DNA of 64,000 bases from Cyanidioschyzon merolae (lineage: Eukaryota). Shown in pieces: positions 1,789 through 39,652 of the stretch. A program made the translations under genes and the position numbers. The stretch is from NCBI GenBank assembly GCA_000091205.1, contig AP006487.2, one strand, 5' to 3'. Every line of letters begins with the position of its first letter. Positions within the stretch are counted from its first letter, which is position 1. The notes under the pieces were generated by a model. It ran no database searches. It was not told the DNA's origin and saw nothing but the letters and a program-made list of their open reading frames with translations.

Positions 1789-2760
1789 TTGCGTAGAACA
1801 GAGCCGTCCACGCAGATGAGTGTTTCCAAGGTCTGGCTACTGGTTCCGACCGGCCGACCAGGTCAGCTGTGGCAAAGTCGTGTTGCGGGAGAACCGCCAC
1901 CGCTCACGGACGCACACGTCCACGAGACGCTACGGAGCCTAGAGGCGCAGGGCTTTCGCCTACTCGTTCAAGTGCGTTTACCTGCACGCCTATGCAAAAC
2001 CACGTGCGAGCGAGATAATGAAGGCACTACTGACCGAATGTTTCTCATTTTTGTGGGAAAATCAGGGGAAAGCTTGCTGCGTGGCCAGTCCTTAACGACT
2101 GCGAACTTGGAGTGGCGTTGCGTATTCAGCACGATGGACGCCACCGATGAGCAAAAGGGAGAACTTGGACAGCAGAACTCTCGTCCGCATGGAAAGCCTG
2201 GCCTGCTCGCCAACTTTTGGAGCGCGCTTGAAGATCGTGCCGAGTCGGCTGCAGCTACGGCGCTTGGAGAGCAGTTGACCCTGGGCTCAGAGGAGCCTGG
2301 CGACGATGCCCACCAGCGGCAAACCACTCGACCACCACGTAGTTCAGTTCAAAGTAGCCTTGAGCTAGAGTGGACTCAGGAACCCATGGATGACTCTGCC
2401 GAGGATCTACTGACATCGGACTCAGAAGACGAGGACGCGGTTGTCAATGAAGCGCGACTGCGTCTCGAACGCTGTTCCCAGCAATGCGTGCGTTTCGGTG
2501 ACCCGATGCCGCTTTTACTCTCCGAGCGTCGGAATCGCCAGGCGTCGCCGCGGGAGCAGCGATACTGTAAGCAATGCGGAGGTATGCTCAAATTTGTATT
2601 GCAATTTTTCGTGCAAAAGTGTCTTTTTCTATGTGAGCGACTTGCATTTGCGAACGCTGGACTCGATTTCCCAAAAGAGGTATTCAGCACCGACATTGAG
2701 TCCGCCGACGTCTTCCACTGCGAGGCCGGATGCGGTGCCGCTGAGCTCGATCTGCAGTGA
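1789..2760 (+). CDS. hypothetical acidic protein, no domain recognised
   Basis: A 323-aa ORF that diverges about 100 bp from the rubredoxin gene. It has a DSEDEDA acidic stretch and codon bias like its neighbours. It may be spurious. Confidence 0.3.
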   Translation: MRRTEPSTQMSVSKVWLLVPTGRPGQLWQSRVAGEPPPLTDAHVHETLRSLEAQGFRLLVQVRLPARLCKTTCERDNEGTTDRMFLIFVGKSGESLLRGQSLTTANLEWRCVFSTMDATDEQKGELGQQNSRPHGKPGLLANFWSALEDRAESAAATALGEQLTLGSEEPGDDAHQRQTTRPPRSSVQSSLELEWTQEPMDDSAEDLLTSDSEDEDAVVNEARLRLERCSQQCVRFGDPMPLLLSERRNRQASPREQRYCKQCGGMLKFVLQFFVQKCLFLCERLAFANAGLDFPKEVFSTDIESADVFHCEAGCGAAELDLQ

Positions 2761-18742: not shown

Positions 18743-21700
18743 TCACTCGTATTCGGATGCAGCTTGTGGTGTTTCCGTAGACGCAACCTGCGATACCGTT
18801 TCAGGCCAGATCACTTCCAGTATAGGCGCGTAAGTGTGCGCCAAATGCATTCCCAAGTGTTGAATTTGGCTGTGGAAATGCCTGAGCTCCTCATGCCAAG
18901 TGCCAAAAACGCGATACGTCGCAGGGAGCTCCCTGACTTGCCGTGCACTCAACAACTCGGCAAGGCGCCTCTCCAGCAATGTATCTAGCGCATCTGCTTC
19001 TACCTGCGCCGCTCGCAGACGACGGATAATCTCTGTTCTCGCAGCGACGTCGAGGTCCAGCGATACCAGGGTGCATTCGATGGCATCAAGGATGCGTTCG
19101 GCGACGTTCGAAGTATTCAGGCCGTGCCCACTTGCCTTGATGGCAGCGTGCAGCGCGCTCCAAACCTCATCTGGCTGAGCGCCGAGATTTGCTCCTGTGT
19201 ACACGCAGTGGCGCGTACGCAGGAGCATCGCCGCTTTCTCGACAAGACACCTGCCTGCGTTTCGCCATGAGAGGAGACGATCCCGATCCAGGAGGAGCAT
19301 CTCGGGGATTTGCTCGGGGCTCAGCAGGCTCTCCGCCTCGGGGTGTGTAAACGTCCAGATCAGTACACGCTGCAGCGTGAATCCCAGCGTTGTCATCAGA
19401 TCCCGCTGCGTTCGTCGATGCGGGTTCAGCAAAGGTCTAGTGCCCGCGGTAGCCGATTCTGCGTCGATCCTCGGAGCGGGCATCTTGGCGCCTTCTGAAC
19501 CAGACTGGATGCCAGCGGACGCGCCGAAAGTCGCTAACCACTGACGACTTCGGGGCAGGCCCGGGAACTTGTTCATCATGACAGCGTACTCCCGCGCAGG
19601 CCCAAACTGCTGAACCAGCGGTATCATGCGCTCGATCCGAGCGATACGCAAATCTCGTTGACGATCCTCAATGAGATCGAACAGCTCCTCCCAGACATGC
19701 ACGATGGCATCTTCGATCAACGAATGCTGATTGATGCGCTCCTGCAGGGCTTTTGCGACCGCGTGCCGCGTCGGCGGCCGTAGCACCGCCTTCTCCCCGG
19801 TGACTCCAGCGGCACGATCGGCTGCTGGTGCCCATGCTTGCACGAGTGACGCGTCCTTAGCCGGCATCTGGACCAGGAAAAGAACCTGCACGGCAATAAA
19901 GATGATATGCGCGAGCGACTCCAGTGCGACTTGGCGTAGCAGCGTCTGATTCGATGTCGATGTCGTCGAGTTCTCTGCCTCGATGAGCGCTTCCAGGCGT
20001 TGACGCCAATAAGACGGATCCAGTTCTCTGTCGATTACATCATGCATCCGCTCGACCTCGGCAGCGTAGAGCGTACGGCGTTGCCGTTGTGGATCCTCTG
20101 CAGGGAAATCGTCCTCTCGCCGAGCGGATAACGACGATGATTGGGGCGTTTTCGAGGGTGGCGGCGGCGGCAGCAACTGCCGCAAGACCTCCCGCAGATC
20201 GCGCACTGCATCCACGAAGAGGGTTACGTAGGCCTTACAAACAAGCGCCTCGCGAAAACGATCAAAATAAGCTTTGCGTAGCCAGCAGTGGATACGCCTC
20301 GAGAGCGCGCTTGGAATCGGCCAGGCGGCAGCGCATGAACTTTGCACCCGTTCGCGGAAAGATGGCAAGTCCACCAGGATTTCGTGCGCGAGAACAGTGT
20401 TCACGTCGAGACCAGCGGCTGCTACTTGGTTGGTATCGCGCACCAGTCCGGAGACGGCGTCCAGTTCGGCTGTTAGGGCGCCGGGCTCTGTCTCCGGCGC
20501 CGCAGAGACCAACCGAGTTGCCAGCCGCTGGACATAGCGCTCGGCCTGGACACCGCCGACGAGTCTCGTCATTTCATGCAGCCGGTCTTGTAACTGGTTG
20601 ACTTCGCGCTCCCAGTATCCGATCGTCTGGTTTGCCACTGTCGCCGATTGATGTGTTGTCGCGCTCCTGACAGTACCGCGTAGCTTGTCCAATGCGGCGA
20701 GTTCGTGGGCGAGTCCCTCGAGAAGCTGCGCCGCATCCCTGCGTTTCCACGCAATGAAGGCTCGTTTCCAGCATCGCCAGGACTGGACGAATCCAGCAAT
20801 GTTCCGCTCAAACTGGTTGTCAGTACGGGGTTTGGTGGCAGCAGCAGCAGCAAGCTGTGCAAAGCGATCTACCAAATTGCGTGCGAAAGCACACAGATGC
20901 TCCGCTGTTTGGTCGCCCAGCGCATATTCTGGGAACCTGTGCACCAGGAACGAGGCCAGGAACACCCGTCCATCACCTCGGCTGTGAAGCCTGCATTCAG
21001 AGGGTGCTGCCGAGTTTGCCGCATCCATCGCAATCAGTGCACGCTCCTGGGCCTGAATCCAACCTGTGAGCGCTTTCAAAAGCTGATCAGCATGCTGAAT
21101 ACATGCCGGTACCTGTAGATGTTCTCTGGTGGCCTCCTCGAACGATATTCCAGCCCGTAAAGGAAAGCCCGCTCTATGTAGATAGCAACATGCTGCGGCG
21201 GCAATTTCGAGCTCCTGACAAGGCACCGCATGCGTTGCCTGACGAGCTGGAGGCTCTGGCCGTGAGCACGACTCTTCTGCGCTCTCATTCTGGTTTGCAC
21301 TTTCCCTCGATTTTCTTGTTGCGTTCGCCTGCGATCCACGGAGTTCTGGCGAAATCCTCTGCTCCGATATAGGGTAAGCGGACGCGCTTTCCAAATACGT
21401 CGCGGAAGCTGAATCCGGGTGAGGAGACGCTCGCTCGGCAAGCTCTTTGGACGATGTATCAGTTTGCACGGCATCGTCCGTTTCTGGGTAACGACCCTGA
21501 CCGCGACACTGAGACGGGCTACCATCGCCGGGTACTATCGCCAGGCGGCGGTGCAGCGCTCTCGACGCGTTACGCACCCTTCTGGCGTTACGGACTCGCT
21601 CTCGCTCCCGCTTCACGGCCGCTGCCTCCATGGCACGCTCTTTGGCTAACCATTGATGTCGATAACGTTCTGCGAGCGCTGTGCGAGCTTCAGCTGCCTT

Positions 21701-22369
21701 GAGCAGCACTCTTTTCCAATGTTGGCGAACTCGCTCTTGTCTATACCGTTGTTTCTCCTCTCGGCGGCGGGCTGCAGCCTCAAGCTCTGCCTGAAGTGCA
21801 TCAAGAGAAACTCTGCCTTCGAAAGAGTGGCTTGCTGAGAGCCATAACTGACGCCGCCGTTGCGCACTGCCGCTCCGTGGCGACTCGGTCACGAAGCAAC
21901 GACGTCGCTTGTCAGCTGAGGCCGGCCGCTTCTCGGCCTTTTCGGGAGATTCAACGAGACGAGGCAATAGAAGGCAACGACGCTGCGGATGAGCGTCGTT
22001 CCCGAGCCTGTCGTTGGTGTTGCGCCCAACGCCTTCGCCTGGGCTAGAAACGCCGCTGCTCCAGGGTTCACTAGCGCGCCCGGGAGTAGTGCATGGCGAG
22101 CACCAGGAAACCTGAGAGTCTGCTGCCTCTTTCGCAAGCGATGATTCACTTCCGTATTTCTCCTTTCGATCCAAACACCATTCGATAATCCATTCGTTGC
22201 TCTGTGTGTCCATGCTTCGAGAACTCCCGTTCCGTTCCAGGCGATAATGCTCACGAATGAACAACCGATGCGGTAGCGATTCGCGGTGTCTCCCATTGGC
22301 CTGCGCAACGGCCGTGTGACAGCCGCCATTGCCAAGCGCCCGTGACAGAATAGGCCGCAATCCCGCCAC
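18743..22369 (-). CDS. large orphan protein (1208 aa), coiled-coil-rich N-terminal third
   Basis: A single uninterrupted ORF. It contains a charged heptad-like region REEKQRYRQERVRQHWKR...RERERVRNARR. I cannot assign a family by eye. Confidence 0.4.
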   Translation of the reverse strand: MAGLRPILSRALGNGGCHTAVAQANGRHRESLPHRLFIREHYRLERNGSSRSMDTQSNEWIIEWCLDRKEKYGSESSLAKEAADSQVSWCSPCTTPGRASEPWSSGVSSPGEGVGRNTNDRLGNDAHPQRRCLLLPRLVESPEKAEKRPASADKRRRCFVTESPRSGSAQRRRQLWLSASHSFEGRVSLDALQAELEAAARRREEKQRYRQERVRQHWKRVLLKAAEARTALAERYRHQWLAKERAMEAAAVKRERERVRNARRVRNASRALHRRLAIVPGDGSPSQCRGQGRYPETDDAVQTDTSSKELAERASPHPDSASATYLESASAYPISEQRISPELRGSQANATRKSRESANQNESAEESCSRPEPPARQATHAVPCQELEIAAAACCYLHRAGFPLRAGISFEEATREHLQVPACIQHADQLLKALTGWIQAQERALIAMDAANSAAPSECRLHSRGDGRVFLASFLVHRFPEYALGDQTAEHLCAFARNLVDRFAQLAAAAATKPRTDNQFERNIAGFVQSWRCWKRAFIAWKRRDAAQLLEGLAHELAALDKLRGTVRSATTHQSATVANQTIGYWEREVNQLQDRLHEMTRLVGGVQAERYVQRLATRLVSAAPETEPGALTAELDAVSGLVRDTNQVAAAGLDVNTVLAHEILVDLPSFRERVQSSCAAAWPIPSALSRRIHCWLRKAYFDRFREALVCKAYVTLFVDAVRDLREVLRQLLPPPPPSKTPQSSSLSARREDDFPAEDPQRQRRTLYAAEVERMHDVIDRELDPSYWRQRLEALIEAENSTTSTSNQTLLRQVALESLAHIIFIAVQVLFLVQMPAKDASLVQAWAPAADRAAGVTGEKAVLRPPTRHAVAKALQERINQHSLIEDAIVHVWEELFDLIEDRQRDLRIARIERMIPLVQQFGPAREYAVMMNKFPGLPRSRQWLATFGASAGIQSGSEGAKMPAPRIDAESATAGTRPLLNPHRRTQRDLMTTLGFTLQRVLIWTFTHPEAESLLSPEQIPEMLLLDRDRLLSWRNAGRCLVEKAAMLLRTRHCVYTGANLGAQPDEVWSALHAAIKASGHGLNTSNVAERILDAIECTLVSLDLDVAARTEIIRRLRAAQVEADALDTLLERRLAELLSARQVRELPATYRVFGTWHEELRHFHSQIQHLGMHLAHTYAPILEVIWPETVSQVASTETPQAASEYE

Positions 22370-22656
22370 AGCAGGCGCCGGCCGTCAACGGCAATCTGCA
22401 GCGATGCATGTCGCTCTGTTTGTGACCGTGACATCATGGATGATGCCTGCCCGCCCCCGACCCGCTCCTCCGAGACCTCGATCCGATTGCCACGTCGCCT
22501 CGGCGATCGGAACATCCCAGCAACAACATCGAAAACTATCGCCGGTTAATATCGAGCACTTTATGAAGCGCACCTTTTGGACGTTGTACGCGCAGTAGCC
22601 TCACATTTACTAGCACATGCGCTTGGAAACTGATTGAATCGATACCCGGGTTTTCG

Positions 22657-24089
22657 ATGGATGCAAATGAGGAGCCGGTGGCGGTATCGCTCGAGTTGGT
22701 AGCGACTTCGGCAGAGATGTCGCTACGAGGGCGAGCGGCACTCCAGATGGTCCAAGCTCATCGTGATATGCTGGACCTCGAACCGGACGGGCGCCATATC
22801 CAAAGGATGGTTGAAACGAGATGCCTGCCTTCATTGCATCTTTCGCTACTTTATGTTCCTGAACAGGGCTCTCCAGAGAAAAACCTGCTTGCCTCCTTGT
22901 ATCCGTGCATCCAGGCCCCTGAGAAAAACCCATTCAATGCGGCACCGGTATGCCGGATTACGGCGCAGGCAACCATCGTAGATATTTGTGTTATGTACTG
23001 CATCGTGTCTGGAGTGAGCTACGGCTGGTCTCTGCGAGCAGGCATGGGACATGCGAGCATCATCTCGAAGAGCATTGGCGGAGCTCGCTCGACGATACGC
23101 ATCCGCTGGTAGAAAGTATAGAAGAGTCAATAGGGACGACAGAGAACGACAGAGTATCAAACCGCATGCAATTCGTGCAATCTAAGCCCAAGTCGAGCAG
23201 AAGGACTCATTTTCAATCGTTCAAGATAGATGATATGAAAGGATTTGTGATGGGTATCGATCCGGGGTCGACAAGAATATCGCGATGGTCGCCATGCCTC
23301 TGTATGATGAGAACGGCATCAGATTTCTGAAAGGCAAGCAGATGACACTGCTCATTTTGTGCAGGGCGTAATATCTTCGCGAGTCATAACGAACAGACGA
23401 AAGAAGCCATACCAACAAATGGAATGATAGCGTCAGAACTGCTTTTGTACGCGCTGAGGAATGTGATGAGCAGAGAAGCATGCTTCGTGCGTCTCAGATA
23501 GAGAGTACACAGATGCGTAACTGGCTCCCGCAGGCATCTTTAGCTGGAGTCCATGAGATGGCGCTGAAATCGCAAACGATTCCTGTTGTACAAGCGCAAG
23601 AAGCACGCATTCTCTAGGTCCTTCAGTGAGTTGGAACAGCGAGTGAAAGACAATGCGCGTCATTCGGTAATAGAGTATGAAGTTGGACATTCCAGCATGC
23701 GCACTGGCTGCACATCTATTCAATCGACAAGAGCGTTCACCAAGAGCAGAAACCTATGCGGGACGATTCCCACTGGAGGCGTTCAGGACAACGCGCATGC
23801 GCATCATGAGTACGACTGCACACTGAAACAGATCGAGAAGAAAAGCGTGGAACAGAGCGCGATACACAATATCATGCAAGGCGAGCTGATGAAATGCCAG
23901 ACACCGAGACATCCTCAGGTGAGAGGCGTACTATTGTGTGATGCCACCAGCGATCATCCATACGAGTACTTTCTGCATCGAGACTTGAATGCCTCAATCA
24001 ACAATCGGGAATGTGTGTGTTGCTGCCAGAGCGTCTATCAACTTTGTTTCCTGCATATTTTCCACGAAATTGATTCGTGCTCGGTGTAG
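22657..24089 (+). pseudogene. decayed TnpB/Fanzor-like RuvC nuclease gene (copy A), frameshifted
   Basis: Frame 0 at 23250-23290 reads KGFVMGIDPGSTRIS, the RuvC-I GIDxG with catalytic Asp. One base later, frame +2 continues AMVAMPLYDENGIRFLKGKQMTLL, comparable to TnpB ...AIVTDGVRFKHEQ... Further downstream fragments are SSRVITNRRKKPYQQ and MRNWLPQASLAGVHEMALKS. The ORF at 23586 reads HAFSRSFSELEQRV...IEYEVGHSS..TGCTS, comparable to WGEF..QLEYKAxWxG...TSQxC, then ...HRDLNASINN, comparable to DRDxNAAxNI RuvC-III. Order and spacing (RuvC-I to RuvC-III about 245 aa) fit TnpB/Fanzor. There are at least 2 frameshifts and several stops. Confidence 0.55.
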
Positions 24090-24497
24090 ACATTTCGATG
24101 AAACGTTGGAGTCTTCCGAGGCAAGACAAAAACTGTGACAAGCAGAGCGGGAATCGGATGCTCGCATGCAGCTACACACCCGTAAGGTACGGTGCAGCAA
24201 CCCAAAAAGGCTGGATCACTGCACCTTTATACCGGAAACGATTTTCCATGGATATTCCTAGACGAAGGTTAGCGTTCCATTATTCGATACGACTGAGCAA
24301 ACGTGCTTGTGGTGATGCCGCACTCGCCCGTGTCGCGCTCCAGCAGCAGGAAACGAATCCCCGCCGCCCGGTGAAAAATCGCAGCAGACGCTGCGGCAAC
24401 GTTCGCCGCCCGTGCTCTAGAACAGAACGAATTACCACGATTTCAAACTAAAGAGAAGTTTGAGGTGTATCCTTTATAGAGACGTACTTGCCGTGTC

Positions 24498-25235
24498 ATG
24501 TTTCCTGCTCCAGGTTCTAGCGCGGGGGGTCAGTCAATGGAGGCGTCCCTTGACGAGGCAGGACTTCCGCGCAAGACTGTGCTAGCCTGCGTTCAGGCCG
24601 TTCTCCAAGAGGGCGGCCTGTCGTCAAGCGCTGAACAGCAGCCTCACAGCGCGCCTTCCGTGAGCTCAAGCCCGTCGCGAGTAGAACATGCGATGGTAAC
24701 AGAGGGGCGACCGCGTGATGCGATAACCGTACAGAACGGCGCTCGTGAGCACGTCAAGCGAGAAGCCTCCACAGAGGAAACGCAACTGGGCGCCACGTCT
24801 CCTGCGACGCTGCAACTCACAGAGGAAACAGCGTGCTCCAACATGGACGCTGAGTGCTCGAAGGACGAGAGTTCACCCCAGAATGGTCCAGAGCCAGCCC
24901 TAACGCTACACCCGGACGCACGTGACCTCATCTGCGCCTGTGCGAACACGTTCGTTCGGTCAATTGCAGTTGAGGCGAATAAGGCAAAGGCCAGAGACCA
25001 GAAACGGACAATCTTCTCGAAACATATCCTAGCCGCCTTGGAGCAGATGGGCCTTGAAGCTTACGTCCCAGTATTGCAGCCACTGCTGGAACGTGTGGAG
25101 GATGAGCAGGTGGAACGCCAACGGCGAAAAACTGGTCGTGCTCGCTTTGAACACACAGGTTTGAGCATAGAGGAGCTCAAAAGACAACAAGCGGAACTAC
25201 TAGCTGCTGCTCGAGAGCAAGCTCTGTGGCCTTGA
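24498..25235 (+). CDS. DR1: NC2-beta / Dr1 histone-fold transcription regulator with a large internal insertion
   Basis: GLPRKTVLACVQAVLQ is alpha1 (compare Dr1 LPRAAINKMIKETLP). ARDLICACANTFVRSIAVEANKAKARDQKRTIFSKHILAALEQMGLEAYVPVLQPLLE is alpha2-alpha3 (compare Dr1 ARELVVNCCTEFIHLISSEANEICNKSEKKTISPEHVIQALESLGFGSYISEVKEVLQ). The C-terminus RARFEHTGLSIEELKRQQAELLAAAREQAL matches Dr1 RLENLGIPEEELLRQQQELFAKARQQQAEL. About 100 aa of S/E/T-rich sequence is inserted between alpha1 and alpha2. Confidence 0.7.
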   Translation: MFPAPGSSAGGQSMEASLDEAGLPRKTVLACVQAVLQEGGLSSSAEQQPHSAPSVSSSPSRVEHAMVTEGRPRDAITVQNGAREHVKREASTEETQLGATSPATLQLTEETACSNMDAECSKDESSPQNGPEPALTLHPDARDLICACANTFVRSIAVEANKAKARDQKRTIFSKHILAALEQMGLEAYVPVLQPLLERVEDEQVERQRRKTGRARFEHTGLSIEELKRQQAELLAAAREQALWP

Positions 25236-26079
25236 CTGCACGCACAATTGCCAAAAGCTGTCAGCGATCGACGCTATGATGAGCACGGTGCATCATCCTT
25301 AACAGCCAAAAACATCAGCTGTTTGTGGATATGCCCAAAGTCGTTTGCGTAGCGATGATGGCCTCCATGTTCAGTGTGTACCAGAAAAGAAAAGCCGTGA
25401 AATGGCCTCGAAGGCGCGGAAGTCGGTACACTGGTGGCGCAGCTCGCCCCGAGATATAGAAATCGAATCCACAGTCGCTTCCCTGGGTTGTTGTCGCAGG
25501 CAGCAACGCAGGATACGGGGAATGCTTGAGAGGAGCTGTAGTCTCCGCTTGCCTAGCTCGTTGCCGGCAGCAGCAAGGATGCTCTCGGGCTATGTTGGTT
25601 CGCTGGATCGATCCCGGTCCATAAAAAATTCGAGACGATGAACATGAGAACCCAGTTATCGGCACTAGAGTTTTTTCATTCAGCATCTTTGGTGATGTTC
25701 ATGAGCGATAACAAAACGATCGCTTTGCCTCTGATTGCAAGCGGTCTCAAGAGTGCCTTTGGTGCCCGGGGGAATATGGTGCAGTCCGCTGTAGCGCCGA
25801 AGGATGCTGCGGATTACAGCTACCGCAACATTTCATTATCCTAGACTCGTACAGAATCTATTGCTCATCGAGAGCGCCTACGAAGCGCCGGCCCATCGAT
25901 GCGATTTTGGTCGATACGCAGCATGGAGCCGGAAGGCGGCCCCCCGTTTGAAATAGAATCAGACGGCTGTACATCATGGCGAGAAAAAGTCCCAATAACT
26001 TTAAACACTCCAAACCGTCCTAGCAAGTCAGAATGTCCAGGCAGATTCGTTCGCTCAAGCGCTGACGAACAAGGCCGAG

Positions 26080-28620
26080 TTACTTGCGGTACGCCATGCG
26101 CCGCCAGAGCGCAGCTGCGTCGCTCGGAACATATGGTGCTCCAGGGCGTCGTCCGTGCCGCCCTAGTGTCGACGGGGCGTACATTGCCTGCCGAGCCGCC
26201 TGAATACCTTCGTGAATGGTCTGCACTAAACCCGAGGCCAACAGTATGATTGCAGCGTTCAACACAATGGTTTCGCGGAGCAATACCAGGTGCTCTGAAG
26301 ATAAACTGCTGGTCTCTGCTCCGACAGCGTTGTCGTCGATACCCGTATTCGTGAGTACCTCCTCGAGGAGTCGTGCATTCTCCACGGCATTGGCACCAAT
26401 CACAGCAGCTAAATCGCCCTTGCTGTACATCTGGTAGCGATGCGGTTGAAGAGGTATCTCGGCGACCTGGGCGATCTCCTCGCCGTCTGCATTGGGGCCG
26501 CGGTAGCAAACCTCGCGCACAGAATTCTGTCCCCAGGGTAGAAGACAGCCCAGATGCTGCTCTCCCGTTGGAGTGTCCTCGTTTGATGCCTCTGGCACCA
26601 GACAAGTGAAGAGCCAGGCTCTTACTGGACGGAAGAACGCGACTGCGTCCGTCAGCGCCTCCAGTTCTGCAGTTCCACTGGGAGCATGGAGACCCGGCGC
26701 AGTCACCAAACGATCAAGGTCGTAGGCATTCAAGAGCGGAGCCACTAAATCTCCCAAAAGCGGTGCTGGCGATGTTGCCACATCTTCCGCGGTAGCCGTT
26801 TCATTCAGTAGGAGTCGAATATCGCGCTTCGCGAGACCTATCGGTGATCGATAAAGCGCTATTCGCAATCGATCAAAAGTTGCACAGGACTCGGCTAGAG
26901 TCGGATAGGGGTTCAGCCCAACAGCAAGCAGGAAAGGGGCATAAGTCGTGCTCAACGTGCTCCGCCAGTCGTCGATGATACAGACGCGGGCACCTGCTGA
27001 TGTGGCAACGACGGCAGCGCCCAACATAATATGGGGAATCATGGCGTTGGAGAAGAGCAGCCCTACTATGGTGGATCTGGAAAGCGGCCCTGAAGGCTGT
27101 GGTGTCCGTGGATGAGCACTTATGTAGGCGGAAAGCTTTGGCAAGTGCGGAAGCAGCAACTGCGCGAGCGCTGCTCGTGCAGAGCCGTGCAAGACGCCAT
27201 CTGCAGCCATCGCGAGAATGCACAGCTTCCGGGCAACTGCGATGGACTCTGCTCGCGACAGGGCCGGAAGCAAGTGCTTCTGTTCATTGGACGATGCCGG
27301 GGCATACGCGCCTGACTTTCCTGCATACTGATATTGTTCGTCAGCGCTCAGCAGTGTAAACAGGCAGCGGGTATCTTCAATACTCAACGGCAACTGGCGA
27401 ATGATAGCCTCGTAGAGATCGGAGACGTCTGCGAACCAGCGGCGCGGCACGGGAGCCGTCTTGTTCGCTATTCGGTCGCTGTGCTGCCTCTGCAACAGTG
27501 CTTCCAGGTGGAAGCGCAGGCGAGCCCACACCATACCCAGAGGCGATGTCAGCGTTCGCGCAGCTCGCTGGTACGCCGGCTTCTTCGCTGGTGGACGCAA
27601 CGGCTGCGGAAACGCTCGCCATCGCTCTGCAAGCTCCTCTCGACCAAGGAAGACGCTGTCTAGTCGCTGTTGTAACTTCCAGAAAAGTCCAAGTATGATG
27701 AGGGCGATGGCACTGATCCAGAATGCCGGTACCGGGAACCGTCCGCCCGGACGGATTGTTTCCAACCCGGGGAGTCGCAGCGGCTCAACGGTAACCATAC
27801 GCCGCTCTCCTTGCCAGGCTCGTCCAGCATGCTCCATTCGTGCCTCATCTGCACGGTCGAGGAAACGTAAAGAGTATCGAACAAGATGACGGGATCTCAT
27901 CCACAGGTGTCTGCATGCGTAGGGCGTTACCCGACGTGCATCAGCAAGGATTTGCGTTGATGACTCGCGACCCCGTCCAAAGCGGTTGCGGGTGTATGCA
28001 TGTTGGCCAGGAAGACGCGTAGGTGTGTTGCTGATCCAGCGCACCAATGGAGCAGAAAACTGAAGTACCGGGAAACCCCATCGAGCCCGCAACGCCCGCG
28101 CCATCCCCAAGGAGCGACCTGTCTCCACATCCGAACGCTTCGGGAAACCATGACACCTATCCAGACTAGTAGACAGAAGCGTTGACGTACGCGCACCCGT
28201 CTCGCTTCTGGAGAGCATTGCACAGTGTTGGCACATGGAACAGGCGTTCGACCGGGGCCTCACGCCGGGCGGCATAACAGGATGCCTGCGGCTCGCAACG
28301 ATACCACTATCCGTTTCGGTGGCTGCTCCTGTATCCAAAAAGGCGCTCCAGGCGACAGGACGGTTCTTGGTCCATCGGTTTGGTATCAAGCTTCCAGTTG
28401 TCGGCCTCACGGTAGTGATTTCCTCTTGTTGACGCTTTGATACTTGCTGCTGCACCATGAAAGCTCGCTGCCGACAGCCACACAATGCAGAGGCCTCCTC
28501 AGCGCAGACAAACAATACCCTCCGACAGAAAGCAAGGTCGTTACTAGCACTACGAATGGTAAACAGTAGTAGTTGTTGTTGTTGCTCTCTTGACTGGGTT
28601 TGAAAAAGCTTTTGCGTCAC
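26080..28620 (-). CDS. membrane protein with C-terminal TrpD-like (glycosyltransferase family 3 fold) domain; catalytic motifs appear degenerate
   Basis: The C-terminal ~330 aa aligns in outline with anthranilate phosphoribosyltransferase. LLGDLVAPLLNAYDLDRLV is comparable to NLLGPLTNPA...LGV. KGDLAAVIGANAVENARLLEEVLTNTG is comparable to GGxAxENAxxLxxVLxG. LRETIVLNAAIILLASGLVQTIHEGIQAARQAM is comparable to RDAVLLNAAAALxVAGxAxSLxEGVxLAxEAI. The KHGNR and GTGGD motifs are not recognisable. The N-terminal half has a TM helix FPVPAFWISAIALIILGLFW. Confidence 0.4.
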   Translation of the reverse strand: MTQKLFQTQSREQQQQLLLFTIRSASNDLAFCRRVLFVCAEEASALCGCRQRAFMVQQQVSKRQQEEITTVRPTTGSLIPNRWTKNRPVAWSAFLDTGAATETDSGIVASRRHPVMPPGVRPRSNACSMCQHCAMLSRSETGARTSTLLSTSLDRCHGFPKRSDVETGRSLGMARALRARWGFPVLQFSAPLVRWISNTPTRLPGQHAYTRNRFGRGRESSTQILADARRVTPYACRHLWMRSRHLVRYSLRFLDRADEARMEHAGRAWQGERRMVTVEPLRLPGLETIRPGGRFPVPAFWISAIALIILGLFWKLQQRLDSVFLGREELAERWRAFPQPLRPPAKKPAYQRAARTLTSPLGMVWARLRFHLEALLQRQHSDRIANKTAPVPRRWFADVSDLYEAIIRQLPLSIEDTRCLFTLLSADEQYQYAGKSGAYAPASSNEQKHLLPALSRAESIAVARKLCILAMAADGVLHGSARAALAQLLLPHLPKLSAYISAHPRTPQPSGPLSRSTIVGLLFSNAMIPHIMLGAAVVATSAGARVCIIDDWRSTLSTTYAPFLLAVGLNPYPTLAESCATFDRLRIALYRSPIGLAKRDIRLLLNETATAEDVATSPAPLLGDLVAPLLNAYDLDRLVTAPGLHAPSGTAELEALTDAVAFFRPVRAWLFTCLVPEASNEDTPTGEQHLGCLLPWGQNSVREVCYRGPNADGEEIAQVAEIPLQPHRYQMYSKGDLAAVIGANAVENARLLEEVLTNTGIDDNAVGAETSSLSSEHLVLLRETIVLNAAIILLASGLVQTIHEGIQAARQAMYAPSTLGRHGRRPGAPYVPSDAAALWRRMAYRK

Positions 28621-28639
28621 TCAGGTACCGCTGCGACGG

Positions 28640-29259
28640 TCTCGAAGCGACGTGCTCTAGAGAAAGCCCTGCAGGAGCCACACGACTCGAAAAAAGAGCA
28701 AGTCGTTACGATGAAGCGTTACCTGCGTAACGACTAGAAACAGCTGCTTCTGAGCGACACGACTCGAATAAAGGGCTAGTCGTTACGATGAAGCGTTACC
28801 TGCGTAACGACTAGAAACAGCTGCTTCTGAGCGACACGACTCGAATAAAGGGCTAGTCGTTACGATGAAGCGTTACCTGCGTAACGACTAGAAACAGCTG
28901 CTTCTGAGCGACACGACTCGAATAAAGAGCAAGTCGTTACGATGAAGCGTTACCTGCGTAACGACTAGAAACAGCTGCTTCTGAGCGACACGACTCGAAT
29001 AAAGGGCTAGTCGTTACGATGAAGCGTTACCTGTGTAACGACTAGAAACAGCTGCTTCTGAGCGACACGACTCGAATAAAGGGCTAGTCGTTACGATGAA
29101 GCGTTACCTGTGTAACGACTAGAAACAGCTGCTTCTGAGCGACACGACTCGAATAAAGGGCTAGTCGTTACGATGAAGCGTTACCTGCGTAACGACTAGA
29201 AACAGCTGCTTCTGAGCGACACGACTCGAATAAAGGGCTAGTCGTTACGAAGAATCGCC
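28640..29259. repeat. 77-bp tandem repeat array, about 7.5 copies, each unit containing a perfect 12-bp-stem palindrome
   Basis: Units start at 28681, 28758, 28835, 28912, 28989, 29066, 29143 and 29220, a period of exactly 77 bp. The unit reads cacgactcgaataaagggCTAGTCGTTACGatgaagcgttacctgCGTAACGACTAGaaacagctgcttctgagcga. Units 1 and 4 share gagcaag in place of ggctag. Units 5 and 6 share the variant ctgTgtaacg. This indicates higher-order structure. The array lies between the divergent starts of the 26080-28620(-) and ALG13(+) genes. Confidence 0.95.
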
Positions 29260-29457
29260 TCCCAAAAGGAGCTTCCCCGGGAACGCTTTACCGTGTAAGG
29301 CTTCGAACGGCTGAGAACGAGCCCAGGCGATACGCGTTACCGCCACCACTTGCATGTGTGCTCCGCGTGGCATCTCCAGTCGATGCTTCTGCACTGCTGT
29401 TCCAAAGTCGTTACACATGACGGTTTTTTCTGGGGGTACTTGTTGCCTTCCTAACAT

Positions 29458-29955
29458 ATGGGTAAACGGGTGTTCGTAACAGTGGGTACAACGCGCTTCT
29501 CGGGACTCGTTCAGGCGCTAGAGAACGAGCAGGTTCTCCGGTCGTTGCGCAGGGCTTGGGACTGCGACACACTGGTGGTCCAGCACGGATCAGGTCCAGC
29601 ACCAGCGAGAGCTTGCATCGAGCGTCATGGTATGACCCTGGAAAGTTTTCCGTACTCGGATTCATTACGGGATGAACAGGAGAGAGCGGACCTCATCATT
29701 TCGCACGCTGGTGCGGGCTCGATCCTCGAAGCACTCGAACATGCTAAACCGTTGGTTGTCGTCGTCAACGAAAGTTTAATGGATAACCACCAATGGGAAC
29801 TTGCCCGTGCACTTGCAGAACGAAAGGCGCTCGTCGCTACCACGTGCGCTGAGCTAGGGCAGGCGTTGGAGCAGGCTCGTCGTCACCGGCAGCAGAGACC
29901 GTTGCCACCGGCTTGTCGTGGGGTGCTCACGCGAGTTCTCTTCGAAGAGAGCTGA
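29458..29955 (+). CDS. ALG13: UDP-GlcNAc transferase subunit ALG13 (GT28 C-terminal domain)
   Basis: The N-terminus MGKRVFVTVGTTRF is the ALG13 signature VFVTVGTT. It also has ISHAGAGSILEAL, and KPLVVVVNESLMDNHQWELARAL, which is comparable to ALG13 LMNNHQxELA. The size of 165 aa is typical. Confidence 0.85.
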   Translation: MGKRVFVTVGTTRFSGLVQALENEQVLRSLRRAWDCDTLVVQHGSGPAPARACIERHGMTLESFPYSDSLRDEQERADLIISHAGAGSILEALEHAKPLVVVVNESLMDNHQWELARALAERKALVATTCAELGQALEQARRHRQQRPLPPACRGVLTRVLFEES

Positions 29956-31785
29956 GAGAGCATCAGGCGTTTATGCACCTACGGGAATGAATCGGGCCTG
30001 GAGGCATGCGTTCAACTGGTACACGGAATGGTGACCGAACGCCGAAACACCGACACTAGTACTTTTTGGAGGGAATCGCTTAAAGAAAACCTGGCGACTG
30101 GTAGTAGTTTCATTGTAAAACGATATGGAAGCTGCTCGCCTGTGTCGATACTTGACTCGTGCTAGAAAGATGCATGCTATCGATGAAATCGCATGGGCTT
30201 TCATGCCAAACTAGTGTGCACTTCTCTTTCTCCAGAGCGTACAGTATTGATTCTACAACGCTGGTACTCAACCTCATGGTATCGTTGAAACGGTACGGAT
30301 TCACGTCACCATTCACGCGTCCTCGTGCTCGGAAAGCATCGACCTCTTATCGGTTTGTTGGTAGGCACGTTGCCTTGGTCGTCGCCCAGCAGATGCGAGA
30401 ACCTTCTCCAGTTCGCATTCGTGGCATCTCCCTATCGCACACTTTTTCGAATGCTAAAAGGGCTTGGTTGTTCGTCAGTGCGAATGAATTGATCACTGGT
30501 GTGCCTCAACTCGAAAGTCTACATCGTTCACAGAGGCTGCGTTCGAATCGACTCGGAAACGGCAAAGAACAGCGCGATCCAATCTGTGTTTCATTGGTCT
30601 AGAGGATCAAAGCCAGCACCAACATGGAAAGGGAATGCTTCGATAGATTCAAACCACTTACAACAACGCAACGTTCATGATCTTTGGTGGCATTTAGCGA
30701 GCACTGCTGTTTCGCCATGCGATCGGAAACGACAGCGTCGATGACTGCCTTTATCGTCGGAGTCTAACGATATGTAATCCATCCTGAGGGTGAGCGTGTC
30801 ACGGTGCAATTGTGACAGAGACACTTGAAGGACGGGCCAGGGAGAAAGCAGGGTCCCTGAGCTATTTAACAGGTCTACAAAAAGCAGGCGCACAGACCCG
30901 AACTCCTGTGCAGCGTCGCAAAACCGACCTAGACGAGAACCGGGTTCTCCTTATTCAAACAAGTCTTGGAGCAGGAAACACTTCCTCGCTCCATAGCCTG
31001 AATATCTGCAGCAAACCGAGCTGTGGAAACTGGATTCGTGAGATACTCGACTGACACTTAACCCATAGAGCAGAGGAGAGGGCTCTCGGGGAGAGCCCGC
31101 ATCCACCGCAGAGTCCACGTGTCCCCCTTTCCCGACGACTGAATTATAGTGCGTTTCAGTACTTCCGACCTCGAATTTATGGTTCGCTGCGTTTCGAACA
31201 GGTGATGCTGAGCAGCACCACAAGAACAGGCATCTCGAGATCGCTCTACGGTGTCTAGACTGCAGTCAACGCAAACCTACCAGATCGGAAACAAAGAAAC
31301 CCAATTTCGGGAGAGCAGCACCGGGTCAACGATACCAGCCTCCGTATACGATAACATTACCGCTATCGTTCTGTCTGGCTAGTGCTAGCGAGTAGCGAAT
31401 GCACGTAGGCATGCATACTAGGGGTACTGCACGTCATGGAGTTGCCTGCAGCGCTTCCGCATACCCTCAGCGACTGCGCGTTCGTGCCTGTGCATGCCGA
31501 CATTGGATGCATTCGCAGTTGGATCCAAGTTTAACAAGACTGCATCTCGGTGGATACAGACCAGAGCGACGACTCGGCCGCAGACGAGTCACCGCTGCTG
31601 CCCAAGGCATCTGCTAGACGCTCAGGTGCTCTCACGGGTATCCCCGTGTACTCCAGACAAGTCTAGATCGCGTTCGATACACTAGCAGCCTGCTCCCCGT
31701 ACATCTGCTGCAAAGTGGCAACGACAAGAGGCGCAAGCGTCGACACCATCGCTCTTCCATCGAGCCGAATGTGTTCCTGTCCGAC

Positions 31786-34581
31786 TCAGTCACCCACGAG
31801 ATCCTTAATCCAGGCGTCCCAGCAGCCCGGTGGTGCCGCTGCCGTTGTTGTTGTTGTTGTTGTAGTCGTTGTCGTTGTCGTGGATCCCGGAAATGCCGAG
31901 GGCGCTACCGACCCTGCATCCAGGGCAGGCATCGAGTGGTGGCATTGTGAATCGCCTCCATGCCGTTTCTCGTGTGCTCCGTCGCTGGGCTCGGGACCAT
32001 TGAGCAGCGGCGATACACTCGATGGTGTCGAGTTCTCTGTCTGCAGAGACGGTGTGCCGGTGCATGTGCCGGTGCCGGTCTCGCTGGGGCCTCCTCCAAA
32101 CTCCGGTCCTTCGCTAGATGATGCAGCGCGGCTAGCGCACGCGTTCTCAGCAACCGCTGCTGGTACGACTCCAGTCCCAAGGATGCTTCCTGGCGTGATT
32201 GTGGCCGCAGCCGAAGCCGCAGCAGCTGCGTGGGGCGAAAGCGGCGATATGCGCGCATAGCTCCATGGGCCCCAGTCTGCTTGAGGCTGCTCCAAGAACG
32301 TTCCTCTCATTGGGGCCAGGTAAAACGAGTGCCCGAACGGGTCTAGGTGCTGATCAGATTCATCATTGCTGGGAGTACCAAGAACAGAGCAACCAGCTGC
32401 ACCGGTAGGCGCGACACACAGCGAGCTGCTGAATCCTCCAGGGTGCTGCTCGCAGACCTCTCCGCCTGGAATCTCCAGCGGCGGGAGCAGCCTCTGGCGA
32501 GCGCGTACACCCCGCAAGGCATCTTGCGTTGCTATCGCTCGAGACGGTGACCTTGTCGCTGCGAACATGAGCGGTGTCGGTGTCGGTATCGGTGTCGGCG
32601 GTACTGCTGTAGCGCACTGCTCCATTGGGGTAGAGGGCGCTCGGCTCAAAGCTCGTGTCGTTTGTGGTGCGCATGTCGATGCTACCGACAACGAAGTCGA
32701 TGCTGATGTTGACGACGACGACGACGACGACGATGGCGGCGGCGGCGGCGGTACATGCAAGGCATCCGTTGTCCTCGTTGCCGACAGGAAGCGTAGCAGC
32801 TCTGCAACGACCTCGTTGTGGCCATGCTGCGCAGCCAGGTGAACCGCAGTCTGTCCGTTCATGTTCGCTGCGTGCGCATTGACGGCGGGCAGTACACCAG
32901 CGCCCCGAATCCAAGCTGCAACCTGCAGCAAAAGGCGCACGCTTTCCGTCTTACCGTACTTGGCTGCGATCATAAGCGGCGTGTTCCCATCCTGTGCATC
33001 GGGCATGTCAAGCACATCGGCGGCATCCCAGAGCGGTACGCCCTGTGCCACCGGTGGTAAACCCAAGCACGCGCGCACGTCTGTGACCGTGATGAGTTCG
33101 CGCAGCACTTCGACATGGCCATAGCGTGCAGCGAAAGTCGCCGCCGTCCACCCTCGAGTGGAAGTTCTGCGCCTAGGATCGACACCGTCCCACAACGAGA
33201 GCAAATGGCGTACACATTTCGCGTGCCCGTGCTGCGCTGCGAGCATGAGCGCGGTGGCGCCCTCACCACATGGTGCATCGAGCACTGCCTGAAGCCACCG
33301 CTTTGCTGTGATAGTGACTGTCCCATTGGAGTCTGTGCCTGTCGTAAGGAGTGCAGATACCCTATGTTTCGCGAATTCGACCAGGAGCGCAACCACAGCC
33401 TCTTGACCGTGCTTCGCCGCGACGTGAATCGGCGTCATCCGCTTCCAATCAGCGGCAACGAGGTCCGCTTCGATTCGGACGAGCTCTTCGCCACCGTTCT
33501 TCAGCGCCGATTCGAGAATGGTCTGCACAACCTGAATATGGCCAAAGCGGCATGCGTAGTGCAGCGGAGTTGAGTTCTTCTTCCGAGACGGCGACACTGG
33601 GCCTTGAATGGCGGTCAGGGACGAGTAATTCGTGGTCGCCGAAGTTGGCGTGCTGATCGTGGACAACGGTGACGCCAGAGGGCATGTGCCTGCGCCCGCC
33701 GTTGCCAGCGGGCTTGGTTGCACTGCGCACACCAACCCTGGCGCCAGCGCTTGCGCAGCGGCAGGCGCGCACTTCACATACTGGAGCCCAGCGGAGACGC
33801 ACGCAGTGGTGCCGCTTTCGCTGCCGGTGTGCTCGCCTCGGAACGTGAACGCTGGGTCAGTTCGCTCATCGATGGAGCATAGAGGCGGCGTTATCTCGGC
33901 GGGCGCAGTTGCTCCACAGCGACTCTGTCTGAGCCCGGCGATATGCCCCGCGAACGTCTGCTCGTTCCGTGTACTGACGGCAGCGGCGCTTGCAAACGCG
34001 GGCGCATTTGGGTTCGGTGCTCCCGTTGCCTTCGCCGACGCTCCCTGGATGGCTGCATTCGCGTACGGAGTATGAACGTCCGCAGGGATTCCCGATACCG
34101 TTGCCGACGCCGGCGGTAGGCAGTTCGTCTCGAAAGCGCGGTTTCGGAGTGAACTTGCTTGAAACGCCTCTGCGACCCGAGAGGCACGCAGGCCGCCGAC
34201 CCGAGCACATCCAGCCGAACGCTCAGCGCCCGCTCCCGGCAATCTACGAGCCACGCTGGGCAAGGGCTTGCGTTCTGCTTGGGACCTATGTATGGCATCT
34301 TTGTGAAATCTCTGCTCCTCGTTTGAAGCTAGCGATTGCTCTGACCCGAGAGCATTCCGGACCGAGAAGTGACCATTGATATAGCTGCCAGTGCTGCTGG
34401 GTATACGCTCCGTGCTTTGCGTTCCCATCCGAGGCTCGCCCGATGGTCGCCGTTCCAGACGCTCTGACGATACGGGCTTTGCGCCCAGCACACCCGGAGT
34501 TCCAGCTCCGTGCTCCATTGTGCAATCCAATGTTCCCAGATGCAATCTATATGCTAGCAACGAAGAAGTAGTAGGCTTCAA
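31786..34581 (-). CDS. ankyrin-repeat protein with poly-Thr/poly-Ser/poly-Asp low-complexity tracts
   Basis: There are multiple 33-aa ANK repeats: TPLHYACRFGHIQVVQTIL, TPIHVAAKHGQEAVVALLV, TALMLAAQHGHAKCVRHLL, TPLMIAAKYGKTESVRLLL and TAVHLAAQHGHNEVVAELL. TTTTTTTTTTTTT and SSSSSSSSS tracts are encoded by the (GTT)n/(GAC)n microsatellites at about 31844-31888 and 32711-32751. Confidence 0.8.
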   Translation of the reverse strand: MKPTTSSLLAYRLHLGTLDCTMEHGAGTPGVLGAKPVSSERLERRPSGEPRMGTQSTERIPSSTGSYINGHFSVRNALGSEQSLASNEEQRFHKDAIHRSQAERKPLPSVARRLPGAGAERSAGCARVGGLRASRVAEAFQASSLRNRAFETNCLPPASATVSGIPADVHTPYANAAIQGASAKATGAPNPNAPAFASAAAVSTRNEQTFAGHIAGLRQSRCGATAPAEITPPLCSIDERTDPAFTFRGEHTGSESGTTACVSAGLQYVKCAPAAAQALAPGLVCAVQPSPLATAGAGTCPLASPLSTISTPTSATTNYSSLTAIQGPVSPSRKKNSTPLHYACRFGHIQVVQTILESALKNGGEELVRIEADLVAADWKRMTPIHVAAKHGQEAVVALLVEFAKHRVSALLTTGTDSNGTVTITAKRWLQAVLDAPCGEGATALMLAAQHGHAKCVRHLLSLWDGVDPRRRTSTRGWTAATFAARYGHVEVLRELITVTDVRACLGLPPVAQGVPLWDAADVLDMPDAQDGNTPLMIAAKYGKTESVRLLLQVAAWIRGAGVLPAVNAHAANMNGQTAVHLAAQHGHNEVVAELLRFLSATRTTDALHVPPPPPPSSSSSSSSTSASTSLSVASTCAPQTTRALSRAPSTPMEQCATAVPPTPIPTPTPLMFAATRSPSRAIATQDALRGVRARQRLLPPLEIPGGEVCEQHPGGFSSSLCVAPTGAAGCSVLGTPSNDESDQHLDPFGHSFYLAPMRGTFLEQPQADWGPWSYARISPLSPHAAAAASAAATITPGSILGTGVVPAAVAENACASRAASSSEGPEFGGGPSETGTGTCTGTPSLQTENSTPSSVSPLLNGPEPSDGAHEKRHGGDSQCHHSMPALDAGSVAPSAFPGSTTTTTTTTTTTTTAAAPPGCWDAWIKDLVGD

Positions 34582-38338: not shown

Positions 38339-39652
38339 ATGCGGTTGAGATCACCGGACCAGTGGCTACGGATTCGGCGCTGGCGAAGAACTGGCGGGCG
38401 TTCAGGGCACCCCGTGCGCAACCTTGCCCTGCTTGTTGTTATGCTTGGCGTTGGCCTGCTCTGGCTACACCCCGAAGCGCACTGGTACCAGCGCCTCAGC
38501 GGGCAAGTTCGGGCTAGGTTACGAGAGCAGTCTGCCGGACACCTCGTGAGCAGCGCCGACCGGAGCGAATCGGCCTTGCGTGAGGCTGGACGTGGAATGA
38601 GTGCGACTGCGTCAGTGAAACTGGGTCAAGCTCGCTGCAGCTGTGCACAAGAAATAGATACAGCGTTTAACTGCTTAAAAGTTCAAAGCGACGTTTTGGT
38701 AAGAGCGCTGGTGACGACGGCGCTCAGTTACGCGAAACCGTGGCGCTGTCAAGACGCTGCCAGCCTGCTGGCTACGTGTTATCTGGATCAACGATATGGG
38801 AACTTGTCCAGCCCGACAGTAAGTCTCGCTACGGTGGAACAGCGCGTACTTGGCGGGTACAGTGATCCGTTCCAGGCGCTCTGGGCCTGTGAGTTCTACC
38901 TCGCCAACTTCCTGCTCTGCGTCGACGACCTGGTTGGCGGTTCCGGAAACACAACGCGGAGCCTCCTCGGCGGTGCAGGACATATTCTGGGCGAGCTCCT
39001 GGTGCCTGTGAGTCGACCAGACATGCGGAGTCGGCAAATACTTCGCGATCCGAAGCGGACGAGTAGCATCCTTTATTGTCTCTTGAACTGGCATCGATGG
39101 GTGCTCCATCTTCAAGAAAATACTGCATGTATCGAGCCCTGCGAGGCTGTTGATGCAGCGCCCACATTCGACAAGATCTGCACGGGCTCGCTCTGTGCGG
39201 TGCTGTTTCGCGAGCCGCGGGGTCCACCGGTGACGCTCGCGAGCCTCACGACACCGGAACGGCCAGTACCGCGAGCCTGCATCGCCTGGTTGTTTGATGT
39301 GCTCGCGCAACTGGCGCTGCTCGCGGACGAGAAAGAGCTCGGGTCCAATAACCTATTCGCGCTCAGTGAAACAGCGAGCTATGGATCATGCTGGCCAATC
39401 GCTCAGCGTCTCGCTGGTTGCCTGTATACAAACGTTGTCGACGGCAATGGTGGTGGCCTCATCGGCCCAGTGCATCGTTGTGATAAATCACTAGGTGATC
39501 TCAGCGAATGCATCGGGGGGATCGCTCTTCGAGAGACGGCCCTACATTGTGCGACGCGGGATAATCTCTGGGCAGTGCGATGTGCACCCATGGTAGATCT
39601 TGACTATCGATCTTGGTACTTTGGTACCATGCAACTTGCCGCAAAAACGTAG
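38339..39652 (+). CDS. hypothetical Cys-rich protein with N-terminal hydrophobic segment
   Basis: A 437-aa uninterrupted ORF. The N-terminus has LALLVVMLGVGLLWL, a signal/TM-like segment. It is cysteine-rich and no family is recognised. Confidence 0.4.
   Translation: MRLRSPDQWLRIRRWRRTGGRSGHPVRNLALLVVMLGVGLLWLHPEAHWYQRLSGQVRARLREQSAGHLVSSADRSESALREAGRGMSATASVKLGQARCSCAQEIDTAFNCLKVQSDVLVRALVTTALSYAKPWRCQDAASLLATCYLDQRYGNLSSPTVSLATVEQRVLGGYSDPFQALWACEFYLANFLLCVDDLVGGSGNTTRSLLGGAGHILGELLVPVSRPDMRSRQILRDPKRTSSILYCLLNWHRWVLHLQENTACIEPCEAVDAAPTFDKICTGSLCAVLFREPRGPPVTLASLTTPERPVPRACIAWLFDVLAQLALLADEKELGSNNLFALSETASYGSCWPIAQRLAGCLYTNVVDGNGGGLIGPVHRCDKSLGDLSECIGGIALRETALHCATRDNLWAVRCAPMVDLDYRSWYFGTMQLAAKT

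Follow-up and report, generated by a model that had tools for sequence, protein, structure and literature searches.

CME090C of Cyanidioschyzon merolae, a predicted membrane-anchored protein with a catalytically eroded TrpD-like domain

Here we analyzed a 64,000-nucleotide stretch of DNA from Cyanidioschyzon merolae 10D (contig AP006487.2; the whole stretch is called the window below) and in it the nuclear gene CYME_CME090C, which lies at 26080..28620 on the minus strand. Its product (XP_005535601.1, UniProt M1V4F6, 792 amino acids) is labelled 'hypothetical protein' in GenBank and is named in no paper found by our literature search; a search on Cyanidioschyzon together with TrpD found nothing either. 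Based on sequence and fold comparisons, CME090C is predicted to be a previously unannotated, lineage-restricted and membrane-anchored offshoot of TrpD, the anthranilate phosphoribosyltransferase (AnPRT), which has been catalytically eroded. The assignment of the fold and the loss of the motifs are solid.

The CME090C gene and its predicted protein

An earlier interpretation that used only the DNA letters (the sequence-only reading) had placed a reading frame at 26080-28620, and an open reading frame (ORF) of 846 codons, stop included, does lie there. The features of its 5' part and of the N-terminal half of the protein are as follows (window coordinates and strand):

26080..28620, minus: maximal ORF of CME090C, 846 codons from GTG
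26080..28458, minus: annotated coding sequence, 792 amino acids from Met55, the first ATG in the window strain (MVQQQ at 28444..28458)
27901..28458, minus: unconserved N-terminal extension, residues 55-240; isoelectric point (pI) 11.6, rich in Ser/Thr and poor in acidic residues; possible organellar targeting peptide or disordered region
27886..27900, minus: Met241, onset of conservation between species and possible alternative start; the Met is conserved in the three closest orthologues
27838..27879, minus: conserved basic motif RYSLRFLDRADEAR, residues 248-261, upstream of the transmembrane (TM) helix
27676..27738, minus: predicted single TM helix FPVPAFWISAIALIILGLFWK, residues 295-315; maximum of 2.2 on the Kyte-Doolittle scale (19 residues)

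The GTG that opens the first 54 codons (28618..28620) is not a eukaryotic start in the window strain. Two environmental C. merolae contigs (L007 and L008) carry ATG at codon 1 by a single G>A change, so that in these strains an in-frame ATG precedes the annotated Met55 by 54 codons; the true start codon, with Met55, Met173 and Met241 among the candidates, is uncertain.

A word-index search found two orthologues beyond C. merolae, F1559_000829 of Cyanidiococcus yangmingshanensis (P0002, 55% identity to CME090C) and a Joint Genome Institute (JGI) metagenome protein (P0003, 53% identity). When the profile of these three sequences was searched with HMMER against 1.84 billion representative proteins, four clusters were obtained at E<0.001, with P0003 as the fifth family member; this search added CDCA12G3366 of Cyanidium caldarium (P0022, E=2e-107) and a protein (P0023, E=8.5e-47) that is encoded at 1171..3297 of a contig (L002) from sequencing run SRR31152685, whose source is very GC- and Ala-rich. 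The same search reached no protein of Galdieria, of other red algae, of plants or of bacteria at this threshold. A second word-index search with the five-sequence profile gave zero further members, and a scan of metagenome contigs gave near-identical C. merolae copies and no new lineage. The family is thus so far restricted to cyanidiophycean red algae, namely Cyanidioschyzon, Cyanidiococcus and Cyanidium together with the P0003 and P0023 lineages, and P0023 may mark a distribution beyond the named Cyanidiales.

Comparison of the orthologues gives no alignment of residues 1-240 across species; this holds also for P0002 and P0003, which have a proportion of nonsynonymous differences (pN) of 0.22 in their cores. 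The conserved part of the family opens at Met241 as M..R.YSLRFLDRADEAR. The composition of the extension is alike in all five proteins, with a pI of 10-12, 13-20% Ser plus Thr and 3-7% Asp plus Glu, and by this composition it appears to resemble a rapidly evolving organellar transit peptide. The GC content at the first, second and third codon positions (GC1/2/3) is 0.56/0.60/0.57 over residues 1-240, which is atypical for coding sequence, and 0.65-0.69/0.50/0.59 from codon 241 on, which is the typical coding order GC1>GC3>GC2 and is found in the neighbouring genes as well. All orthologues have an open frame in this region, and in three species it runs without a stop for 160-240 codons ahead of the conserved Met, with 4-5 stops in the other frames. 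Since the frame is kept open in three species and the composition is shared by five proteins, the extension is probably translated.

The sequence-only reading had also seen a TM helix within the N-terminal 500 residues. The 21-residue segment FPVPAFWISAIALIILGLFWK agrees with this; it is the only strong TM candidate in CME090C and a hydrophobic segment is present at its position in all orthologues, although more than one such segment may lie ahead of the TrpD-like domain in P0023. Between the helix and the TrpD-like module, which begins at about residue 399, there is a basic linker of ~75 residues with a pI of 11-12.

Homology to TrpD and the fate of the catalytic motifs

CME090C has one Pfam match, PF00591 (Glycos_transf_3, GT3), with E=5.7e-4 and 20-21.5 bits over residues 722-814. 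The gathering score of PF00591 is 27 bits, below which the CME090C sequence alone falls, so that by the strict Pfam rule it is not a member. PF00591 is nevertheless the top family for five of five members, with a best E-value of 2.7e-13, and scores 48.3 bits (E=1.3e-12) in P0023, which is the most TrpD-like protein of the family, and TIGR01245 (trpD) is the best NCBIfam match for all of them, with a score of 16.6 bits for CME090C and a family maximum of 34 bits against a cut-off of 199. In the PDB, single-sequence phmmer and a three-sequence full-length profile gave nothing relevant, whereas a profile of the five C-terminal domains placed AnPRT chains on top (9ucw with E=6e-4; also 5noe and 4hkm). 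The family domain was then compared by hhalign with a reference alignment of six TrpD sequences (E. coli TrpD and five diverse TrpDs from the PDB), which resulted in a probability of 97.4% and E=1.3e-11 over 223 columns; the relaxed alignment extended over 324 columns, from family positions 9-451 to TrpD 1-331, with the N-terminal helical bundle included. Against single sequences the hhalign E-values were 1.3e-4 for E. coli TrpD, 0.089 for YbiB and 0.31 for the thymidine phosphorylase DeoA. A structural model was predicted with AlphaFold2 (AF2) from a family-only multiple sequence alignment (MSA) without templates, and all of its top 50 Foldseek matches are AnPRT (E about 5e-5). An AF2 model of residues 241-846 with a three-sequence MSA was unusable (predicted local distance difference test, pLDDT, 34). 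The resemblance is thus much stronger than chance would give. From these comparisons, homology of the module to AnPRT can be taken as established at the level of the GT3 superfamily, and the module matches the two-domain AnPRT fold, with an N-terminal helical bundle and a C-terminal alpha/beta domain.

The sequence-only reading had proposed a TrpD-type fold for the last ~330 amino acids on the strength of three peptides, and had described the whole as an eroded TrpD-fold domain on a membrane-anchored protein. All three peptides are present in the protein: LLGDLVAPLLNA aligns to TvFNvLGPLxNP of TrpD, GDLAAVIGANAVENARLLEEVL to l..l.GgdaeENa.il..vL.G. and VLNAAIILLASGL to the 'valNaa..l..ag' helix. 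The fold and profile searches returned GT3/TrpD as the best match, and the homology therefore stands; its extent was underestimated, as the TrpD-like part covers ~440 amino acids when the helical bundle and four insertions are counted. The description as a whole proved correct, since the motifs stay absent in five of five members on proper alignment. The module is built as follows:

27070..27426, minus: N-terminal helical-bundle region, residues 399-517; relaxed hhalign to TrpD residues 1-75, helices in the AF2 model
26176..27069, minus: TrpD-like alpha/beta domain, residues 518-815
26179..26457, minus: residues 722-814, the only stretch found by single-sequence searches with hidden Markov models (HMMs; PF00591 174-248, TIGR01245 239-316)
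27049..27063, minus: GLLFS at the GTGGD position, residues 520-524; motif lost, Phe invariant in the family
26965..26979, minus: IIDDW at the KHGNR position, residues 548-552; motif lost, Asp-Asp invariant in the family
26725..26742, minus: APLLNA at the GPLxNP position; P, L and N kept in five of five members
26512..26517, minus: R702-E703 at the position of the Mg-binding Asp-Glu pair; Asp lost in five of five (R/Y), Glu kept in four of five

Relative to TrpD, the insertions are ~45 amino acids within the helical bundle, ~12 before APLLNA, ~25 before the strand equivalent to beta5 and ~17 before the last helices, and a 31-residue tail follows the GT3 fold. The helical-bundle region holds the most conserved block of the family, RRWFADVSDLYE...LSIE.TR.IFTLLS, whose family-wide form at the start of the bundle is RRWFA[DE]V[ST]DLYE..I.....LSI[ED].TR.IFTLLS. 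The equivalent region of TrpD contributes to the dimer interface (PMC9835598).

The roles of the AnPRT residues were taken from a review (PMC9835598) and their positions were mapped onto the five family members by the hhalign alignments. The GTGGD motif, in the beta1-alpha5 loop, binds the 5'-phosphate of phosphoribosyl pyrophosphate (PRPP) and anthranilate (PMC9835598). In the AnPRT of Mycobacterium tuberculosis (Mtu), the KHGNR motif and the Ser-rich beta2-alpha6 loop provide K135, N138, R139, S142, S143 and G147, the Mg2+ ligands are S119 on alpha5 and the D251-E252 pair on beta5-beta6, and the anthranilate-binding Arg is R193 on alpha8 (PMC9835598). The sequence-only reading could find neither GTGGD nor KHGNR, and this holds for all five members, with GLLFS and IIDDW at the aligned positions of CME090C. 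The GTGGD column reads G/A/L-L/V/I-L/V/S-F-S/A across the family. The S-S-x-x-G-S-x-D loop is lost and replaced in CME090C by T-L-x-x-T-Y-x-P (through residue 562), and no ligand of the KHGNR motif or the Ser-rich loop is kept in any member. Likewise, the N-x-S-T of alpha5, which serves pyrophosphate and Mg, is H-I-M-L in CME090C, and the Mg-binding Ser is M, A or T across the family. The placement of the anthranilate Arg is ambiguous, since one hhalign run puts Mtu R193 in an insertion or gap and the other puts it at R602, a residue that is Arg in the three closest species only, Trp in Cyanidium and a gap in P0023. The C-terminal helices of TrpD are kept in the family. Residues that are invariant in the family at the former active-site loops are F523, D550-D551, Y560, P628/L629/N631 and H803-E804-G805. 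As the catalytic motifs are absent on proper alignment, CME090C is not simply a TrpD fusion, and because the fold agrees with AnPRT while the other AnPRT features that could be placed clearly fail, it should not be filed as TrpD.

Selection and genomic neighbourhood

A core of ~600 codons is intact in five lineages at 32-55% identity to CME090C. Selection was estimated between the Cyanidiococcus and P0003 species, for which synonymous divergence (dS) is near saturation. In the TrpD-like domain pN is 0.18 and the corresponding synonymous proportion (pS) is 0.65, giving a ratio (omega) of ~0.14; omega is ~0.31 in the TM/linker part, and in the N-terminal extension pN is 0.56 versus a pS of 0.71. 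Within C. merolae the strain-level ratio of nonsynonymous to synonymous divergence (dN/dS) is uninformative, with 3-8 substitutions per 2.5 kb, and a 90%-identity cluster of 42 near-identical copies from hot-spring metagenomes has zero frame disruptions. CME090C is under purifying selection.

Upstream of CME090C, the divergent intergenic region of 837 bp and the next gene contain the following features:

28675..29254, no strand: 77-bp tandem array, 7.5 copies, 97% identical
29458..29955, plus: ALG13-like protein (Glyco_tran_28_C, PF04101, E=2e-24), divergent neighbour

This is the divergent pairing with ALG13 across a 77-bp array that had been described from the letters. Within each unit there is a perfect 12-bp inverted repeat, CTAGTCGTTACG / CGTAACGACTAG, whose arms are separated by 15 nt. 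The number of copies in the array varies between environmental C. merolae contigs (4.5 in L008 and 7.5 in L007); no such array is present in the orthologous intergenic regions of 330-370 bp in Cyanidiococcus (L009) and in the P0003 organism (L010), and no second copy was found elsewhere in the 64-kb window. The gene order Tcp11, NF-YB-like histone-fold protein, TrpD-like protein, ALG13-like protein and ankyrin protein (window 18743..34581) is kept in these two relatives. Cyanidium caldarium keeps it but for an inversion of the NF-YB/TrpD-like pair, and has phosphoenolpyruvate (PEP) carboxylase nearby as in the window. Since the block is inverted in Cyanidium and the array is specific to C. merolae, the pairing of CME090C with ALG13 looks like plain synteny, and no functional link between the two was found. 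A partnership of the ALG13/ALG14 type was considered and rejected, as the domain of CME090C is GT3 and not Alg14 and the gene order is rearranged in Cyanidium.

The remaining large ORFs of the window include ordinary nuclear genes for a Cdc6/ORC-like protein, a PX-domain protein, a GPN GTPase, a thiolase, Tcp11, PEP carboxylase, a CCCH zinc-finger protein, a histone-fold protein, an MBOAT protein, the second-largest subunit of RNA polymerase and a GATA factor. A Pfam scan of the other large ORFs of the window found no tryptophan-pathway gene and no canonical TrpD. Two of these ORFs, at 13133..15190 (minus, 685 amino acids) and 38339..39652 (plus, 437 amino acids), have no Pfam match at E<=0.001. 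Another, at 52514..53425 (plus, 303 amino acids), has a core-histone fold at residues 190-293 only, behind a long N-terminal extension, and may be a variant histone of the CENP-A/CENH3 type.

Proposed nature of CME090C and comparison with known families

The reading that we favour, with moderate confidence, is that CME090C is a membrane-tethered TrpD paralogue that does not work as an AnPRT but as a pseudoenzyme or a re-purposed binder, probably at an organellar membrane. The protein would start with a fast-evolving, basic, Ser/Thr-rich extension, followed by the basic motif, the TM helix, the ~75-residue basic linker and a divergent but complete two-domain GT3 module. Binding of PRPP and Mg in the manner of TrpD would be lost and the AnPRT reaction would no longer be catalysed; we infer that it is impossible because a bulky L-L-F replaces the Gly-rich phosphate-binding loop. 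The fold that was retained, most plausibly through the conserved helical bundle, whose counterpart in TrpD forms the dimer interface, may bind a partner protein or a small ligand, and CME090C is probably a dimer like other GT3 proteins. As for its site, the ancestral TrpD is targeted to the plastid in algae and the extension is transit-peptide-like in composition, so an organellar membrane, most likely that of the plastid, is probable. The sequence-only suggestion of a pseudo-enzyme or a regulatory or sensor derivative of TrpD is consistent with these data.

Several points weigh against this proposal. Part of the extension at residues 55-240 might be 5' untranslated region, with translation from Met241, since its GC pattern by codon position is atypical, and the case for organellar targeting rests on composition. 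Confidence in the AF2 model is low (pLDDT 47, predicted template modelling score 0.47), which makes the geometry of the pocket unreadable. In addition, the invariant residues that now occupy the former active-site loops are equally compatible with a new site for catalysis or for a ligand. Invariant positions make up ~29% of these loops versus 21% elsewhere, which is not persuasive either way.

One possible option, which we find rather unlikely, is a neofunctionalised enzyme, in which the GT3 cleft would be rebuilt on Asp550-Asp551, Tyr560, Glu703 and His803-Glu804 and would carry out other chemistry at the membrane, for instance a phosphorolysis or another transfer of a glycosyl or phosphoribosyl group. 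Invariant acidic and aromatic residues do stand at the TrpD positions of KHGNR, the Ser-rich loop and the Mg pair, purifying selection on the TrpD-like domain is strong, and the GT3 fold already hosts the chemistries of AnPRT, nucleoside phosphorylase and AMP phosphorylase (PMC9835598). Yet the change of the Gly-rich loop to L-L-F, together with the loss of all Lys, Arg and Ser phosphate ligands, is the usual signature of a dead site, the enrichment of invariant positions at these loops is slight, and the most conserved block lies in the helical bundle, outside the cleft.

Another hypothesis, which is similarly doubtful, describes CME090C as a TrpD derivative that is specific to Cyanidiophyceae and tethered to an organelle membrane, where it would serve the plastid tryptophan pathway as a regulator or an anchor, or else would have gained a new ligand or a new catalytic activity. 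In its regulatory version the protein would pair with an active TrpD in a 'prozyme'-like manner through the dimer interface of the helical bundle, and in the new-activity version the site would be built on the invariant Asp-Asp, Tyr and His-Glu that replace the PRPP site. If true, this would give a new functional class of the GT3 fold in eukaryotes, which arose independently of bacterial TrpD2.

It is improbable that CME090C binds DNA or RNA like TrpD2/YbiB while attached to the membrane of an organelle, where it might serve to anchor nucleoids. TrpD2 proteins are homologous to AnPRT in structure, lack the PRPP motif and bind DNA (PMC9835598), and the linker beside the TM helix is very basic. 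However, every measure, including the hhalign E-values and the best NCBIfam match of all members, places the family closer to TrpD than to TrpD2, and TrpD2 is described as a prokaryotic, soluble family. The charge of the domain does not discriminate, as the family pI is ~6, and global charge was dropped as a test of DNA binding since YbiB itself has a pI of 6.4 and the CME090C domain one of 6.0.

A real but highly divergent AnPRT of the Cyanidiales is very improbable. CME090C is a TrpD homologue, C. merolae is an obligate photoautotroph and must make its own tryptophan, and no other TrpD was seen in the window, which is a negligible sample of the genome. Against this, the PRPP, Mg and anthranilate ligands are replaced in the five members, except for one Glu and, in one of two alignments, an Arg of the three closest species, the TIGR01245 score lies far below its cut-off (16.6 bits versus 199), and the search of 1.84 billion proteins reached no homologue in Galdieria or any other alga, an unexpected gap if the protein were the enzyme of an essential pathway. 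A TrpD pseudogene in decay, or an ORF that is open by chance, as might be read from the eroded motifs and from 240 unconserved N-terminal codons with atypical GC1/2/3, is effectively refuted by the intact core in five lineages, the conserved synteny among relatives, a pN far below pS, the undisrupted frames of the 42-sequence cluster and the coding-type GC1>GC3>GC2 across codons 241-846.

The known offshoots of the GT3/TrpD fold are few, namely the nucleoside phosphorylases, the bacterial DNA-binding TrpD2 and an uncharacterised plant group. The CME090C family would add an offshoot that is eukaryotic and membrane-anchored, that has lost essentially all PRPP and Mg ligands (one Glu remains in four of five members) and that has been kept by selection across the divergence of Cyanidium and Cyanidioschyzon. 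With it, a 'hypothetical protein' of C. merolae, a model alga that is genetically tractable, becomes a concrete experimental target, and the family is a possible case of pseudoenzyme evolution from an enzyme of a core amino-acid pathway. The general impact is moderate, as paralogues of metabolic enzymes that have lost their motifs are common and no long-standing question is addressed.

Among the known families, TrpD itself (phosphoribosyltransferase type III; PF02885 plus PF00591; TIGR01245) is the closest. It has the same two-domain fold, is colinear with the module over its whole chain, and gives the best match of the GT3 subfamilies whether HMMs, profile-profile alignments or structures are compared; CME090C retains its P-L-x-N of GPLxNP, one Mg-binding Glu and the C-terminal 'ENa...LNaa' helices. 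Unlike TrpD, CME090C has GTGGD, KHGNR, the Ser-rich loop and the Mg-binding Asp all replaced, carries the four insertions and ~400 extra N-terminal residues with the TM helix, and was found in Cyanidiophyceae only in the search of 1.84 billion proteins.

The nucleoside phosphorylase II proteins (thymidine and AMP phosphorylases) differ more, as the comparison with DeoA (E=0.31) gives no profile similarity and CME090C lacks their C-terminal alpha/beta hammerhead domain and has its 31-residue tail instead. In plants there is an uncharacterised TrpD-like group in which Pfam sees the alpha/beta domain alone (PMC9835598), and At1g70570 of Arabidopsis is listed as a second, non-co-expressed PAT isoform (PMC10142997). 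By description, CME090C is like this At1g70570-type group, being an Archaeplastida TrpD paralogue in which Pfam sees PF00591 alone (here a part of it). Since no plant protein reached E<0.001 with the family profile in the search of 1.84 billion proteins, any relation to that group is at least as remote as that to TrpD.

TrpD2/YbiB resembles CME090C in being a TrpD homologue without the catalytic motifs, but it is more distant from CME090C in sequence and structure than TrpD is, and CME090C does not belong to it. TrpD2 is prokaryotic, soluble, ~320 amino acids long and SOS-linked, whereas CME090C is eukaryotic, membrane-anchored by prediction and ~600-800 amino acids long, and the loss of the motifs in the two families was probably independent.

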